Shown: piece by piece, positions 46,864-54,637 of the stretch | How positions within the stretch are numbered: position 1 is the stretch's first letter | How the letters are laid out: every line of letters starts with the position of its first letter | Assembly: GCA_963422375.2 (NCBI GenBank) | Contig: OY729427.2 | Location: 896,001-960,000, forward strand | Source: Bryobacterales bacterium | Lineage (GTDB): Bacteria > Acidobacteriota > Terriglobia > Bryobacterales > UBA6623 | Direction of reading: 5' to 3' | Length of the DNA stretch: 64,000 bases | Notes under the pieces: generated by a model | Seen by the model: only the letters and a program-made list of their open reading frames with translations | Told to the model about the DNA's origin: nothing | The model's database searches: none | Made by a program: the position numbers and the translations under genes

Positions 46864-48697
46864 CGCCGGCAGGTCGCGCTTCTCGCCGCCGTTGCGCCCC
46901 GCCTGGCAACCTGCTACGGTCTCTCTAGAGCTCGACGTCACCTACAGCCTCTCGCGTCGCACGGCGGTCGCGAGTAACGGGGTTGGATATGGCCTGCAGG
47001 CTCATGGCTCTTTGCCTCTTGGCAGCGCTCGGTGTCTGTCAAGCCCAGCTGGCCGAAGCGGGCGACAGCGCTTCGCTGCGAGGTCCGGCGGCGGAGCAGC
47101 CCGGTCCAGCAAGTGCTGGCGCGGGGCGACGCAGGGGCGGCCGGCTCGCTCTCCGAGCTCCAGGCCGGCGAGATCGAGAAGCTCCTGGAGCAGCTCGCCG
47201 AAGGACTCGTCTCCGGCACTCCGATCTCGCGCGACAGCGTCGCCCCGGACTTTCGCGGCACGCCGCTCGGCCCGGCAGCTGAGGAGCTAGCCCGTTCGCA
47301 GGACGGGCTGGAGACGTTCCGCGGCACGCCGCCTACCGATCCGTCGATCACGCCAAGTTCAAGATCGTGAGCATCGAGCCGCGGGGCGAGAACGCCGCGC
47401 GCACGACCTTGCGTTTCCAGCTGTCGGGCGCGACGAACGGGGGGCATCGCGAGCAGCTCGACGCCGAGTGGCGCTGCGACTGGCGGAAATCGCCCTTGGG
47501 CCAACGGCAGCTGGCGGGACTGGCGGCCGGCCCGAGCGAGCGAAGCCGCGCAACGGTCGCGGTATTCAACGATGTCTCGGAGTCGGCCTTCGGACATAAC
47601 GCTTCCTACCAGCGGCAGCTGAAATTCGGCACGCAAGTCTGGCGGACCAGAATGGACGCCGCCTCGGGCATGGACGTCTACGGCCAGCGGGGACTGGCGG
47701 TCGGGGACTTCAACGGGGACGGGCTCGAGGACTTCTACCTCACGCAGCCGGGGGGACTACCGAACCGGCTGTTCCGCAACCTAGGCCACGGAAGCTTCGC
47801 CGACTTCAGCGCCGAGGCCGGCGTCGACGCCCTGGACGGCTCCTCGGCCGCGTTCTTCGCGGACATCGACAACAACGGGACGCAAGACCTGATCGTCATC
47901 CTTTCCGTCGGCCATCCGATCCTGTTCCTGAACGACGGACGCGGCACGTTCCGGCTGTCGCCGGACGGATTTCCCCCGGGCGTCAAGCCGGGGGCGGTCG
48001 GCGGCTGCATCGGAGACTACGATCGCGACGGATTCCTGGATCTGTACGTGACCGCGTATCTGTGGCCGAACGCGGCCTCGCAGCTCCCGCGCCCCTACTA
48101 CGACGCCACGAACGGCCCCCCGAACGTTCTCTACCGCAATCCGGGGACCGGCGCGTTCGAGAACGCGACGGCCGACGCGGGGCTGGAGGAGAACAACGAC
48201 CGGTTCAGCCACGCATGCGCCTGGGGCGATTACGACCAGGACGGATGGCCCGATCTCTTCGTGGCCAACGACTTCGGCCGCAAGAACGTCTATCGCAACC
48301 GAGGCGACGGAGGCTTCCGGGACATCGCCGCGGAGGCAGGCATCGAGGATCCCGGAGCCGGCATGAGCGTCGCGCTGGGCGACTACGACGGCGACGGGAG
48401 GGAGGACGTCTATTTCGGCAACATGTGGTCGTCGGCGGGGCGCCGGGTCACGGCGCAGCGGGACTTCAAGAGCGCCAGCCCCGGGGCCCCACGCACATTT
48501 ACCGCCGGCATGCGCGCGGCAACTCCCTGTACCGGAACGAGCTCCGCCGCTTCGCCGACGTAACTCTCGAGTCCGGCGTGGAACTGGGCCGCTGGGCGTG
48601 GTGCTCGGACTTCGTGGACTTCGACAACGACGGCCGTCTCGACATCTACGTCGTCAACGGCTTCGTCACCGGGACCGAGGGACAGGCCCCCGATCTT

Positions 48698-48740
48698 TGA
48701 AGCTTCTTCTGGCGGCAGGTCGTGTCGTCCTCCCCCGAGG
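48698..48740 (+). promoter_or_regulatory. In-frame UGA plus candidate bacterial SECIS hairpin
   Basis: TGA(48698-700) AGCTTCTTCT GGCGGCA-GGTCG-TGTCGTC: 7-bp stem with two G-U pairs and a GG-initiated loop starting 18 nt after UGA; GCAGGTC core identical to the E. coli fdhF SECIS. Confidence 0.6.
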
Positions 48741-49714
48741 ATCGCGCCCGCTCCTCGCGATACGAGCGCAGCTGGGCGCTGCTCTACAGGCTGATCCGCC
48801 TCAGCGGGCACGAGCGGAACGTGCTGTACTGGAATCGCGGCGACGGCACCTTCGCGGACCTGTCGGCGGTCGCCGGCCTGGACTTCCCCGAGGACGGCCG
48901 CGCGTTCGTCACGTTCGATTTCGACCGCGACGGAGATCTCGACATCCTCCTGAACAATCGGAACTCCCCGCAGTTGCGGCTGCTGCGCAACGACTTCGCG
49001 ACATCCCATTCCTCCGTGGCCGTCCGGCTCGAGGGCACCGAGAGCAACCGGGACGGCATCGGCGCGAGGCCGGTGCTCGAGACCGCCTCCGGGCGGCGCC
49101 TCGCGAGATCCGTGCGCAGCGGCTCGGGCTTCCGGTCGCAGCCCTCCCGGACGGCGCATTTCGGCCTGGGCAGCGAAGAAGAGGTCGGCGAGCTCACGAT
49201 TCACTGGCCGTCGGGGCGGCGGGACCGCCACCGGGGGGTCCCGGCCGGACACCTCGTGTCCCTGAAGGAAGGGAGGCGCGACGTAGCCGCGGTTCCGTTC
49301 GAGGCCCCGACCGCGACCGCGCCGCCCGCCCGCCGGAGCCCGCACGACCGCCGAGCCGAACGGGCGTCTGGCTGACGGAGGCCACCCCGGCCCCGCAGCT
49401 GCGCGGACGGACGCTGGACGGCGAGCGGATTCGCCCGGAAGCTTACCGCGGCCGGCGGCTGCTGCTCAATTTCTGGGCGACCTGGTGCGCGCCGTGCAAC
49501 ACCGAGCTGGCGGACTTCGCCCAGCACCGCGCCGATTTCGAACGCGCCTCGCTGCTGCCGTTGCTAGTGTCGGTCGACGAGCCGGGCGAGGTCGAGACCG
49601 TGGGCCGCTACGCGCGAGAGAAGCAGCTGCCGTTCCCGGTCCTGCTTCCCGACAAGGGCACCGTGACCGCGTTCGACCTGCTGGTCCGCCATGTTCTCGA
49701 CCAGTCGGCCGAGC

Positions 49715-49752
49715 TGGCGGTCCCCAGCACGTTTGGCGATCCCCAGCACGTT
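49715..49752 (+). repeat. 19-bp tandem duplication causing a frameshift
   Basis: TGGCGGTCCCCAGCACGTT (49715-49733) followed by TGGCGATCCCCAGCACGTT (49734-49752), one mismatch. Confidence 0.92.
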
Positions 49753-51186
49753 TCTCTTCGACGAGAGGGGCAGGATCGTGTGGCTCTACCTCGGCCTGAC
49801 GCCCGCGCAGCGGATTCTGGCCGACGCGGAGAGCTGGCCGGCCGGCGGCTCCGGGTTGCTCGAGCGGGACCTGCCCTTTCCCGGACGGGCCTACGTAACC
49901 CGATTCGAGCGGAACTGGGTCCAGCTCGCGGACGCGTACGCCGCGGCCGGCCTGCGGGACGAGGCGGTGGCGACCCTCGAGCACGCCGTCGAAGCCCACC
50001 CTCAGCACGCGGCCAGCCTCGACCGGCTCGGGAGCCTGTACGCCGAGCAGGGCCGCTGGCAGGAAGCGCGGGAGAGGCACAGGGCGGCGGTCGAACTGGG
50101 GTTGCCGGGCGGCGCAGCGCAGATTCACCTCGCCACCGCGCTGGCGGAGCTGGGAAGGCTGTCCGAGGCTCGGGCAGCCGCCACGGAGGCGCTCGCACAG
50201 TTTCCGGAGGACGCGGACACGCTGCGCGTCTGGGGCGCGGTCGCCTCGCGCCAAGGGACTTCGAGAGCGCCTTGCCCGCACTGGTCGCCGCGCGCCGGAT
50301 CGATCCCGACAACGCCGCGGTCCACTACAACCTCGGCTGGCTGCATGTGCAGGCGGGACGGACCCGCGAGGCGACCGCATCCCTGCTGAAGGCGGTCGAG
50401 CTGGAGCCCGGGCATGCCAACGCCCTGCACGATCTCGGCATCCTGCACGCCCGAGCCGGGGCGTGGGAGGAGGCCGCGCAATCGCTCCGCGAGGCCATCG
50501 CGTCGGAGCCGGGCCTCGCGGAAGCGCACTACAGCCTTGGCATGGTCCATGCGCGGCAGGGAGACTTCAAGCGAGCCGAGGAGGCCCTGCGGGAGACCTT
50601 GAAGATCCGCGGTGAATACGCCCAAGCCCTCACCGACCTAGGGGCCGTCTACATCGCGACGCGCCGGTACCGCGAGTCCCTAGCCCTGCTGGAGCGAGCC
50701 CGCCGGGCCCAGCCCCAACTCGGCCAGTCCTACTTGAACGCCGCCAAGGCCCATCTAGCCTTGGGAGACGTAACGGGCGCGGTCGCCAGCTTGGACGCCC
50801 TCCTCAGCGTGCATCCCGGCGATCCGAGCGCGCTCGCCCTCAAGGAGCGCTTGCAGGCGCCATGACCGCGCGCGCAGGCGGCGTCCCCGGTCCGAACGCG
50901 GGGCGCTCTAGGTCCCATCGAGGATCCGGTCACCGCAATCCAGGCGAACGCGGGCTCCTCTTCAGCCAACCGTTTCGGCCCGCTCGGAGGGTCCCTCGAC
51001 GAGAGTCCGCAAGACGTCATCCGGCACCGCGCATGCAGCGCGAACGCCGCGTCTCGCATCCTCCTCAACGGTTGGGAAGCGCGTTGGCCTACCGCCGGTC
51101 TCCTTGCGACCGCTCCTTGAATGACCCGCGGATCGGGCTGCGGTAAGCCGTCGCGACGGAACGTTCCCGCGGGTATACTTCGAACG

Positions 51187-52781
51187 ATGCCAGAGGGGCG
51201 CCGCGCACTGTTCGCGCTGTGGCTGCTCGCGTCTGCCCACGGGTCCCCGCGCGATCCGACCGTCCTCCCTCCGCCGCCGTCCGCGCACGCCGCTCCGGGC
51301 GTCGCGTTCGAAGATGTCACTTCGTCCGCCGGCCTGGGCTCGTTCGAACACCGCGCCGGATCTCCCGACAAGCCATACCTGCCCGAAACCATCGGCTCGG
51401 GCGTAGCGCTTTTCGACTACGACAACGACGGCTGGCTGGACGCGTACCTGCTCAGCTCCCTGTCCGAAGAGGCGCGCCGGGGAATCGCCCGGCCTAACCC
51501 GTCCGTGCTCTTTCGCAACAATCGCGACGGCACGTTCACGGACGTCACCGCGCAGGCCGGCGTCGCGAACGAGCGCTGGGGGGTCGGCACCTGCGCCGGG
51601 GACGTCAACAACGATGGCTGGACGGATCTCTTCGTCACCAATTTCGGCAAGAGCCGGCTCTATCTGAACGGCGGCGACGGAACTTTCGAGGACACCGCGG
51701 CGGAAGCCGGGGTTCAGGTCGACGCCTGGTCGACGGGATGCGCCTTCGGCGATTACGACGCGGACGGCCTGCTTGACCTCTACGTGGCTAGCTACGTCGA
51801 CTTCCGCTGGGATGATCCCCCGCCCCCGGGGGCTCCGCCGGGCAGCTGCCAGCGGAGGGTCGCGCGGCAGCGCATCCGACCGGCGGCGAGCCTGCGACCG
51901 GCGCCGCCTACAGCCCCGGCATGCCGGTCTGCGTGTACTTCGGGGTGCCCGTCGCGTGCGGTCCCAAGGGCCTGCCCCCGCAAGCCGACACGCTTTTTCG
52001 CAACGAAGGCGACGGCCGATTCCGCGACGTCACCCGGAAATCGCGCCTGAGTGAGGCACGCCCCAGTTACGGACTGGCAGTCGCGTGGGTCGATCCCGAC
52101 GACGACGGCCATCCCGACATCGTCGTGGCCAACGACTCGATGCCGAACTTCCTGCACCGCAACCTAGGAGACGGCACCTTCGAGGAGATCGGCGTGCTCA
52201 GCGGCCTAGGCACGAACGGGGACGGCCACGACCAAGCCTACATGGGCGTCGCCGTCGGGGACTACTCCCGCGACGGCCGCAGCGACTTCTTCTTCACCAC
52301 CTTCTCCGGTGACAACTACACGCTGCATCGCAACAACGGCGACCTAGACTTCAGCGACGTCACGCTGCAATCCGGGCTGCTGGCGGCGACGCTTCCGTTC
52401 CTCGGCTGGGGCACCACGTTCCTCGACTACGACAACGACGGCTGGCTCGACATCCTCGCGGCCAACGGCCATATCTTCCCCCAGGCGGACCCCGCGACGT
52501 GGGGGACGTCGTACGGGCAGAGGACCCTGCTGTTCCGCAACCTGCGCGACGGCAGGTTCGCTGACGTCTCGGGAAGCGTCGGGGCCGGCTTCGCGCGGCC
52601 CAGGAATTCCAGGGGAGCCGCGGTCGGGGATCTGTTCAACGACGGCAGCGTCGACGTGGTCATAAACAACCTGGACGGCCGCCCCACCGTGCTCCTGGCC
52701 AGGATCTACCTCGACGGGCGCAGCCTGGAGCTTGCGGAGGCCACGGTGCAGCGCGCGATCGAAGTCCAACCGCATAGCTAG
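51187..52781 (+). pseudogene. CRTAC1-family FG-GAP protein pseudogene: frameshift near 51840, ASPIC domain deleted, fused to a TPR remnant, ending at the IS
   Basis: PYLPETIGSGVALFDYDNDG repeats in the 51121 frame continue in the 51921 frame (CVYFGVPVACGPKGL); after NNLDGRPTVLL the sequence switches to TPR-like ARIYLDGRSLELAEATVQRAIEVQP. Confidence 0.82.
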
Positions 52782-54637
52782 TGCTTGTGACAGAACGCGC
52801 AAGCCCTTAGTTTCCGGGCGGTTGCAGCAGGTCCGTGGGACGAAGATCGGGGCGATCCGGGCCGGCTTGCGCGCTTCCGGCGGTCAAGCGACAATCTTCG
52901 TTGAGGAACCGCCCGTGAGGACCGTTCAGGAGATCCAGCTCACCCTTGGCCGGACTGCAATCGAGGATATCGATCTCGACGTCCGTTCCCGCGACGATAT
53001 CCCGGCCATCTTGCTAGGAATACAATTCATCTATCGCACCGAGGAGTTGCGGGACAGGGTTTTCGGACTGCTCGAGAGCCGTATCCTCGGCCTCGGCGAG
53101 AGTAGCGGGAACGGCGGGAACGGCGAGAACGGAAGCGATCCTTCCGCAGGCGAGTCCGGCAGGATCAACCCTGCCGTCGGTCGTCCCGGCATGCAGCTGT
53201 GGAACATTCTCGTCCCGGGCCTGCTCAAGCAGGGATTGAATTGCGACTGCGACCGCGTGACGGAGCTGGCGAACAAGCACGCGGACGTCCGGCGCTTCCT
53301 CGGTCTGAACGCGACGCTCGACGAGCAGGTGTTCAGCTACCGGACAGTCAACCGGAATCCGAAGCTTCTCACGCCCGACCTCCTCGCGGAAATCAATCGG
53401 CTGGCCGTGCGGGAAGGGCACGCGCTGGCGGGGTGCGAGGAAGGCGATCCGCTGAAGGCGCGGCGCGACTCGTTCGCGGTGGAAACGAACGTGCATTGCC
53501 CGACGGACGTGAGTCTCCTATGGGACGCCTTGCGCTGCCTGATTCGCTCTATTGCGCCGCTGTGCAAGGGGCGCGGTATCGCGGTCTGGCGGCAGAGCGC
53601 GCGGCTGCCGAAGACGCTGAAGCAGGAATTCAACCGGGTGCGGCAGGCGAAGAGGAGGCAAGGCAACCCGGAGAGGGTGCGGTCGTACCTGGAGGCGGCC
53701 CTGGAGATAGCGCGGCGGGCGGAGGGTGCGCTGGCGGCCCTGGCGCGGGCCGGGGAAGACGAGGGAACCTTGGGAGCGGCAAGGAGTGACCTCGGGTACG
53801 TGCAGCTCCTGGCGGACCCGGTGGAGCGGCGCGTGCTGCGGGGGGAGAAGATCCCGCACGAGGGGAAAGTGTTCTCGATCTTCGAGGAACACACGCGCTG
53901 GTGCGTGAAAGGAAAAGCGGGGGTTCCGGTGGAGCCGGGCGTGCCGGTATGCATCGTGGAAAGCGAGCACCGATTCGTGATGAATCACGAAGTGACGTGG
54001 AAGGGGAGCGACGCGGACGTGGCGGTGGGAATCGTCGAGGGGGCGCAGGGGCTGTACGCGGGGCTGTCGAGCTGCAGCTTCGACCAGGGCTTTCACAGCC
54101 CGGCGAACCGGACGCGCTTGGCGGAACTGCTATCGTGCCACGCGATGCCGCGGAAGGGGAGGCTGTCGAAGGCGGCGAAGGAGACGGAAGGCGCGCCCGA
54201 ATTCGCGGCAGCGAGGCAGGCGCACCCGGCCGTGGAGTCCGCGATCAACAATCTCGAGTGCCGCGGTCCGGACAGGGTGACGGACCGGGGAGCGGAGGGA
54301 TTCGAGCGGATGATCGGGCTGGCGGTCCTGGCGGCGAACGTGCATCGAGTGGGCCGGATCGTGCGCGACAGAGAGAGGGAGCGTCTCAAGACGGAACCCT
54401 TGCCGCTGGCTGCATAGGCAGTCGGCAGCGATCTGAATTGCCCTGAATTGAAACCTTGAAGAGACGAGGTTCAGGAAAAGTTTACAACTAGAACAGAACT
54501 AACTGTATCCTCACAATGAAAATGGAATATGAGGCAATGAGTTCGGGTAATTGGCGCAGCCTGTTTCTTCCATAGCTATCATTTGGTGGGGATCTATTAG
54601 CTAGAATCCCCAAAATATCAGGGTTTTGTCACAAGCA
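52782..54637 (+). mobile_element. Insertion sequence (ISNCY/IS5-like DDE), ~1.86 kb, 15-bp imperfect TIRs, flanked by CTAG
   Basis: Left TGCTTGTGACAGAAC (52782-52796); right GTTTTGTCACAAGCA (54623-54637), whose reverse complement matches 14/15; CTAG at 52778-81 and 54638-41. Exact ends are ambiguous because CTAG is palindromic. Confidence 0.9.
52915..54417 (+). CDS. DDE transposase (ISNCY/IS5-like), probably degenerate
   Basis: RSRDDIP, GRPGMQLW, DSFAVETNVHCPTD, KVFSIFE.HT.W..KGK, SFDQGF, HPAVESAINNLE; GTG 52915 with GAGG upstream. Confidence 0.88.
   Translation: MRTVQEIQLTLGRTAIEDIDLDVRSRDDIPAILLGIQFIYRTEELRDRVFGLLESRILGLGESSGNGGNGENGSDPSAGESGRINPAVGRPGMQLWNILVPGLLKQGLNCDCDRVTELANKHADVRRFLGLNATLDEQVFSYRTVNRNPKLLTPDLLAEINRLAVREGHALAGCEEGDPLKARRDSFAVETNVHCPTDVSLLWDALRCLIRSIAPLCKGRGIAVWRQSARLPKTLKQEFNRVRQAKRRQGNPERVRSYLEAALEIARRAEGALAALARAGEDEGTLGAARSDLGYVQLLADPVERRVLRGEKIPHEGKVFSIFEEHTRWCVKGKAGVPVEPGVPVCIVESEHRFVMNHEVTWKGSDADVAVGIVEGAQGLYAGLSSCSFDQGFHSPANRTRLAELLSCHAMPRKGRLSKAAKETEGAPEFAAARQAHPAVESAINNLECRGPDRVTDRGAEGFERMIGLAVLAANVHRVGRIVRDRERERLKTEPLPLAA

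Follow-up and report, generated by a model that had tools for sequence, protein, structure and literature searches.

A family of large exported bacterial proteins built around a CRTAC1-like beta-propeller very probably contains selenocysteine (Sec) at an in-frame TGA codon, with the copy in the window (the whole 64,000-nt stretch of Bryobacterales contig OY729427.2 analyzed here) being a dead member of that family. Insertion of Sec at the TGA by SelB, guided by a hairpin of the bacterial SECIS type, is very probable from the comparison of homologous sequences. The TGA would then be a SelB/SECIS-decoded Sec codon in proteins that combine the propeller with an ASPIC/UnbV domain, a CxxC domain and a TPR array. 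A preliminary description of this DNA had read the gene as that of a selenoprotein. That reading is supported. A redox role for the Sec, with recycling by the CxxC domain, is what we infer.

Codon and hairpin

The frame across the site reads ...NGFVTGTEGQAPDL-TGA-SFFWRQVVSSSP..., and the in-frame TGA and the 7-bp hairpin with a GG-initiated loop 10 nt downstream, both reported in the preliminary description, are found at the positions given in Table 1. The hairpin, GGCGGCA-GGTCG-TGTCGTC, begins 10 nt past the TGA and its loop begins 17 nt past the codon. As given in the legend to Figure 2A of a 2026 review (PMC13188914), the bacterial SECIS consensus has a loop of 3-9 nt, a stem of 4-16 bp and a G in the first two loop positions; further limits in the same source are a distance of 16-37 nt from the UGA and a minimum free energy of at most -7.5 kcal/mol. 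The hairpin in the window satisfies the consensus as stated there, with a 5-nt loop (GGUCG), 7 bp, 17 nt and -8.7 kcal/mol, the last value being that of a 28-nt piece that folds to exactly the 7-bp stem.

A single hairpin of this kind is unremarkable and is therefore weak evidence; it is the comparison across the family that makes it strong. The folding statistic for this one hairpin is not significant (z = -1.04, with 32 of 200 shuffled sequences folding as well), and such single-hairpin statistics were set aside as evidence. With 63 or 100 nt of sequence, a fold other than the 7-bp hairpin has the lowest energy. Of the stop codons that end frames of at least 300 codons in this genome, 88 of 3371 TGA, 78 of 2696 TAG and 16 of 544 TAA have downstream a hairpin that is SECIS-like by a loose definition, or about 2.6-2.9% of each type.

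Across the family, a 5-bp core of the hairpin is intact at 57/57 TGA sites and at 5/64 sense-codon sites, counts which, like the codon counts below, include kin and hence are not independent. Conservation of the hairpin in TGA copies had been put forward as a check, and it holds. On the earlier caution that the hairpin partly follows from the codons for WRQVV, random synonymous recoding of the same ten residues keeps the core in 5.5% of draws. Codon +8 is GTG in all 57 TGA copies (36/64 in the others), codon +7 is only GTC or GTT, and codon +9 is TCG in 55/57. The same copies use varied synonymous codons for Ser at +1 and +11 and for Pro at +12. Several variants keep the pairing. For example, a G-U pair is replaced by A-U in six copies and by G-C, with a change of Ser to Pro, in one; in one genome (G220) a two-sided change from G-U to C-G accompanies a change of Ser to Ala. 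At three loci (L157 in G220, L168 in G030 and L310 in G513) Gln to His at +6 adds a C-G pair to the stem, and the loop shrinks to GUC, as in the hairpin of the FdhA-like gene of this genome.

Table 1. Features of the family copy in the window (positions in the window; homologue-based boundaries are projections)
Feature	Position	Strand	Basis or remark
Very probable Sec codon, in-frame TGA	48698..48700	+	Motif DL-U-SFFWRQVV; homologue comparison and model
Putative bacterial SECIS-type hairpin	48711..48729	+	7-bp stem; 5-nt loop GGUCG at 48718-48722
Pseudogenised gene for an exported protein, ~1310 residues	46989..50865	+	ATG at 46989; last frame ends at 50865
Pseudogene layout: signal peptide, N-terminal domain, FG-GAP beta-propeller with probable Sec, ASPIC/UnbV, ResA/TlpA-like redoxin, TPR array			Pfam domains of P0002
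Probable signal peptide, general-secretory type	46989..47060	+	N-terminus short and hydrophobic, lacking a twin arginine; approximate end
First frameshift, net -8 nt	47083..47097	+	Relative to three intact homologues; matching letters in public contigs
FG-GAP beta-propeller region	47328..49050	+	Pfam and AlphaFold model of intact homologue; end approximate
ASPIC/UnbV domain	49055..49250	+	PF07593; projected from P0002 residues 717-782
ResA/TlpA-like redoxin	49357..49734	+	PF00578, PF08534; Foldseek matches to ResA and TlpA structures; CAPC at 49486-49497
End of redoxin and TPR array	49733..50853	+	1-nt deletion at ~50255

Distribution of the family

The codon at the site was tabulated for 121 distinct homologous DNA sites, pooled from fetched loci after removal of duplicates; some of the listed matches were fetched as DNA, the site pattern missed a few divergent sites, and three further sense-codon sites lie outside the 121. 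The codon is TGA at 57 sites, TAA or TAG at none, and a sense codon at 64 (S16, N14, E8, C8, G5, M5, A4, D3, Q1). Intact homologues with TGA or Cys at this position, which the preliminary description had asked for, thus exist in both forms. Cys is a minority residue, with 8/64 sense-codon DNA sites and 5/79 uninterrupted database proteins.

In 41 related genomes, 42 of the listed matches contain exactly one stop codon, which is always TGA; all lie in frames of ~1200-1430 codons except the window copy (591 codons) and one frame of 867 codons. Between one and three TGA copies are present in each member of the genus, and the family may thus be a main use of their Sec machinery. Of 301 genomes drawn across the phylum, 22 have the motif region and nine besides this genome have TGA. 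A draw of 401 genomes across the class gave 103 with the motif region, further TGA copies among them, and one TGA copy was found in a Verrucomicrobiales bin (L026). TGA copies are present in at least 42 genomes. A metagenome scan returned mostly generic FG-GAP matches, with the motif in 2/78 loci, both with sense codons.

TGA copies occupy both sides of the deepest split in an unrooted 95-row FastTree phylogeny, on which six changes are needed; the tree leaves out one short row and two rows that have frameshifts upstream, and both quick and FastTree trees were used. As far as an unrooted sequence tree can indicate, the pattern fits an old Sec with repeated loss. Twin-arginine signals occur in 20/27 non-TGA rows and 1/29 TGA rows, that one probably spurious. 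This signal was considered as a correlate of Sec loss and rejected: its carriers fall in one clade and represent one event.

This genome has four copies of the family, namely the window copy, two intact copies with TGA and one intact copy with Cys. The two intact TGA paralogues, C2:3299315 (-) and C1:580604 (+), are, as judged from their sequences, the working copies. In the Cys paralogue at C2:1413016 (L125) the signal is of the twin-arginine type and the redoxin is degenerate. This copy falls in a Cys clade nested among copies with N, M or E, so Cys there looks secondary and not ancestral to Sec.

Selenocysteine machinery

Genes for the four components of Sec insertion, whose presence had been proposed as a check, are all found in this genome: selA, selB and selD each score above the curated cut-off, and tRNA-Sec (selC) lies at C2:1571727-1571821. 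The genome also has a second selenoprotein gene, the FdhA-like gene (L272) at C2:2609581 (-), whose in-frame TGA is followed 19 nt later by a SECIS-like hairpin. The SelD of the genome (L011) has Cys in the active-site motif.

Among the at least 42 genomes with TGA copies, selA was found in 41; the remaining one is a 400-contig bin that has selB, selD and tRNA-Sec. It had first appeared as two TGA-bearing genomes without selA (G344 and G543), which are the same bin under two handles. A selD match in this bin (G543, C291:1015-1923) has one in-frame TGA. No TGA copy was seen in the 17 family-bearing genomes without selA, and selB was not found in the four of these that were checked. Since selA is common in the phylum (found in 120/139 genome searches), co-occurrence is only a modest test; nine class-level genomes lie outside this check. 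In one genome whose family copies have no TGA (G523), selA is in two pieces (C9:338555-339265 and C16:237355-237852) and contains two TGA stops, which may reflect decay of the Sec system.

Protein architecture and a proposed role of selenocysteine

Intact copies have a signal peptide (judged by eye), FG-GAP repeats, and ASPIC/UnbV, AhpC-TSA/Redoxin and TPR domains. The FG-GAP propeller is followed by the ASPIC/UnbV domain in the intact homologue L014/P0002. An AlphaFold model of 900 residues of L014, made from 57 sequences, has a mean pLDDT of 91, and the read-through protein is predicted to fold as one unit (pTM 0.91). In the model a helix (501-511) begins at residue 501, the Sec position, and sits in a two-helix insertion between propeller strands. 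The best Foldseek match is murine CRTAC1 (9etn_A), followed by ResA/TlpA proteins. ASPIC/UnbV proteins are highly expanded in these genomes, with 70 matches in this one.

The WCAPC thioredoxin motif that the preliminary description placed in the same gene is indeed there (Table 1). In its canonical form, N-x-W-A-x-W-C-x-x-C, the motif occurs in 55/55 TGA copies with at least 300 residues downstream of the site and in 0/61 others, and all eight DNA sites with Cys are without it. Across the 28 TGA rows of alignment A1, no Cys other than the CxxC pair is invariant, and a local resolving Cys is therefore lacking. Some W-x3-CxxC is present in 14 of the 79 uninterrupted database proteins; the canonical WA[ST]WCxxC is present in only two, both with Cys at the site, and a degenerate W-x3-CxxC is found in 12 of the 74 non-thiol proteins. 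Three of the five uninterrupted Cys proteins have no CxxC. The natural homologues P0024 and P0161 have Cys at the Sec position together with the canonical CxxC and are convenient bench surrogates.

These features suggest a mechanism. After export, Sec at the helix N-terminus on the propeller would be a reactive nucleophile, acting on an extracytoplasmic substrate bound by the propeller or the TPR array. It might reduce or repair oxidized thiols, or sense oxidation. The fused CxxC domain would re-reduce the Sec and could in turn be fed from the cytoplasm by a membrane protein of the DsbD/CcdA type; one DsbD_TM gene occurs in this genome. In lineages losing Sec, the SECIS and the canonical CxxC would decay and the proteins would stay as non-redox binders. 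A relay of this sort is favored by the co-occurrence of CxxC with TGA, the lack of a local resolving Cys and the restriction of canonical CxxC in uninterrupted proteins to those with Cys. Taken as a whole, from reactive exported Sec through CxxC re-reduction to a DsbD/CcdA feed, the mechanism is an evenly balanced proposition. The wider reading is tentative, a little short of even: old, multi-phylum exported CRTAC1-like propellers would be a selenoenzyme with a built-in TlpA-like CxxC reductase, in which Sec is ancestral and has been lost repeatedly along with the CxxC, mostly to non-thiol residues and not to Cys.

Sec could also be inserted and yet not be recycled by the fused CxxC, serving as a metal or ligand contact or as a structural or regulatory residue, with the redoxin acting on other proteins. 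This is a serious alternative, of appreciable though less than even probability. The residues at 56/64 sense-codon sites are non-thiol and typical of helix N-termini, which counts against an obligatory catalytic thiol: the fold does not require one at this site. The persistence of a degenerate CxxC in the 12 non-thiol proteins fits the alternative as well. Phylogenetic coupling of Sec and CxxC is not significant: 3/3 independent pairs agree on starred branches (p = 0.25), and with Cys pooled with Sec there are four that agree, none that oppose and three ties (p = 0.125). The perfect co-occurrence in the DNA set argues the other way, as do the invariant cysteines of the TGA rows, limited to the CxxC pair, and the pairing of canonical CxxC with Cys in the uninterrupted proteins. 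No conserved operon with redox partners was seen in 39 neighboring frames from nine loci, where the recurrent neighbors are other FG-GAP/ASPIC genes, TPR genes and outer-membrane barrels.

Alternatives to selenocysteine at the TGA

In a different view, translation truly ends at the TGA, which would divide the gene in two, and would start again eight codons farther on, at the invariant GTG. The universal GTG in TGA copies is what such a start would need, and gene callers do split the gene: five representatives end exactly at the site and 80 database proteins begin shortly after it (79/80 with CxxC, which the query favored). This reading is nevertheless very improbable. Neither TAA nor TAG ever replaces TGA among the 121 sites. 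Codons +1 to +7, which would lie between stop and start, change synonymously while the amino acids stay the same, as translated sequence does, and a start codon does not explain TCG at +9 or the paired changes in the stem. The cut would also fall within one propeller and deprive the second half of a signal peptide, whereas the 64 sense-codon homologues are single frames.

Equally doubtful is a UGA read without selenium, either by a near-cognate tRNA for Trp or Cys or by leaky termination. Cys does occur at the site in the small number of homologues noted above, as near-cognate reading might predict, but Trp never does. Such reading leaves unexplained a conserved hairpin whose spacing and G-initiated loop are those of the bacterial consensus and which is similar to that of the FdhA-like gene in this genome; nor does it account for the failure to find a TGA copy in the 17 genomes without selA.

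Simple decay of the codon, the caveat raised in the preliminary description and suggested by the six frameshifts of the window copy, is excluded for practical purposes, since dozens of genomes, from both sides of the deepest split, have the same TGA within open frames of ~1200-1400 codons.

Relation to known selenoproteins and related proteins

Decoding of the TGA as Sec would follow a known mechanism. In E. coli formate dehydrogenase H (fdhF, UGA-140) the in-frame UGA is likewise followed by a short hairpin within the reading frame. The two hairpins share the GCAGGTC core at nearly the same distance, as had been pointed out, with the core one base closer to the codon here (14 nt, compared with 15 nt in fdhF). 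The decoding machinery of fdhF (selA, selB, selC and selD) is also in this genome. The proteins themselves are unrelated: the family lacks a molybdopterin domain, its probable Sec is on an exported beta-propeller, and no UxxC or CxxU surrounds the Sec.

Murine CRTAC1 gives the best structural match (9etn_A; Foldseek E 4.3e-27, TM-score 0.72 by target length, 18% identity). It also matches by sequence (E 5.3e-20) and has in common the FG-GAP repeats (PF13517) followed by ASPIC/UnbV (PF07593). In contrast to CRTAC1, the family adds an N-terminal domain, the helical insertion with the probable Sec, a CxxC redoxin and a TPR array. The redoxin domain matches structures of ResA, TlpA and StoA (E 1e-9 to 1e-7), with which the model shares WCxxC at a helix N-terminus, and it scores 68-76 bits against the ResA model NF002854, below the curated cut-off of 170 bits. 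Unlike those membrane-anchored single-domain proteins, it is fused inside a protein of 1300 residues.

Catalogued selenoproteins of the redoxin type (UxxC, UGC-containing TlpA and the ResA-like WAxxUGC proteins of NF041054) also combine Sec with a TlpA/ResA-like domain. In the entries of Table 1 of PMC13188914 their Sec is within the redoxin's own motif. None of the 55 TGA copies that extend far enough has Sec inside the active-site motif of the redoxin, as UxxC or UGC; the redoxin has two Cys, and the probable Sec is ~270 residues upstream in another domain. Scores against NF041054 are 38.7 and 46.2 bits, with a cut-off of 300.

The preliminary description placed the gene outside the selenoprotein families it knew, and the sources covered agree. 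The 119-family table of prokaryotic selenoproteins in the 2026 review (PMC13188914) has no FG-GAP, CRTAC1 or ASPIC entry, and no mention of ASPIC, CRTAC1, propeller, tetratricopeptide or VCBS was found in the accessible portion of that review, where most listed families are thioredoxin-fold or metal-cofactor enzymes. NCBIfam has no family-specific model; the matches shown are of TPR and ResA type and lie below cut-off except for one generic TPR. The family was not found in the passages covered of the BSepDB paper (PMC13326102) or in its one supplement, nor by a term search of the deep-Sep text and four supplements (PMC12013277). Full-text searches of the literature gave no report of Sec in the CRTAC1/ASPIC-UnbV family; the combination of selenoprotein with FG-GAP returned only non-microbial papers, and that with ASPIC returned none. 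The family is thus absent from the catalogues covered; the groundwater deep-Sep list, subscription papers, bioRxiv supplements and RefSeq Sec annotation could hold it.

The decoding mechanism is already known, the scaffold is new and the function is what we infer. If the reading is correct, selenium chemistry outside the cytoplasm would gain a new scaffold, an exported propeller of 1300 residues carrying Sec, and bacterial ASPIC/UnbV proteins a first biochemical handle and a testable redox hypothesis. Public protein sets cut the gene at the TGA, and many entries would be mis-annotated as two genes.

The window copy

The copy in the window is a true pseudogene and cannot make the protein. It is covered by six tblastn segments in alternating frames, with 59-78% identity to the intact homologue P0002. 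Its signal peptide was judged by eye from the translation, and intact TGA homologues have a similar type of N-terminus. Read from the start codon, the frame is closed after 97 codons by a stop at 47280; the UGA is thus out of reach of ribosomes in that frame, and there is no intact frame from start codon to UGA. The earlier estimate of about six frameshifts proved accurate: relative to three intact homologues there are six net frame-changing indels, at ~47083-47097, 47332, 48490, 49305-49350, 49713 and 50255. Within the propeller region these are a 61-nt deletion (47332) and a 1-nt deletion (48490), with an in-frame deletion of 12 nt at 48797 in addition. The redoxin region is entered via the frameshift at ~49305-49350 and has a 19-nt duplication at 49713.

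Assembly error as the source of the frameshifts was considered and rejected. The same letters are found in contigs from public runs of three studies, which makes the pseudogene real. Contigs from runs X3 and X4, from which this assembly may have been built, agree with 46900-48614 and 48700-50900 at every letter and contain no gaps there; contigs of a second study (X5) match except at 48615-48699 and 49837-49960; and a third study (X6) gives exact pieces spanning three of the breaks. Contigs of this kind drop rare variants. Since the window copy is a pseudogene, the selenoprotein would be made, if at all, from the intact paralogues. By itself the window copy adds little: it is a dead duplicate in which codon and hairpin persist.

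Downstream in the window, at 51121-52781 and 52732-54417 (+), an FG-GAP/CRTAC1-like gene is split over two frames and runs into an inserted 561-codon frame that resembles an IS transposase (by eye; no Pfam match at 1e-12). The intact paralogue on C2 is likewise followed by an FG-GAP/ASPIC gene, there intact, and an ADP-ribosylglycohydrolase is nearby, as in L014. The gene pair in the window is probably a decaying duplicate of this two-gene cassette on C2.
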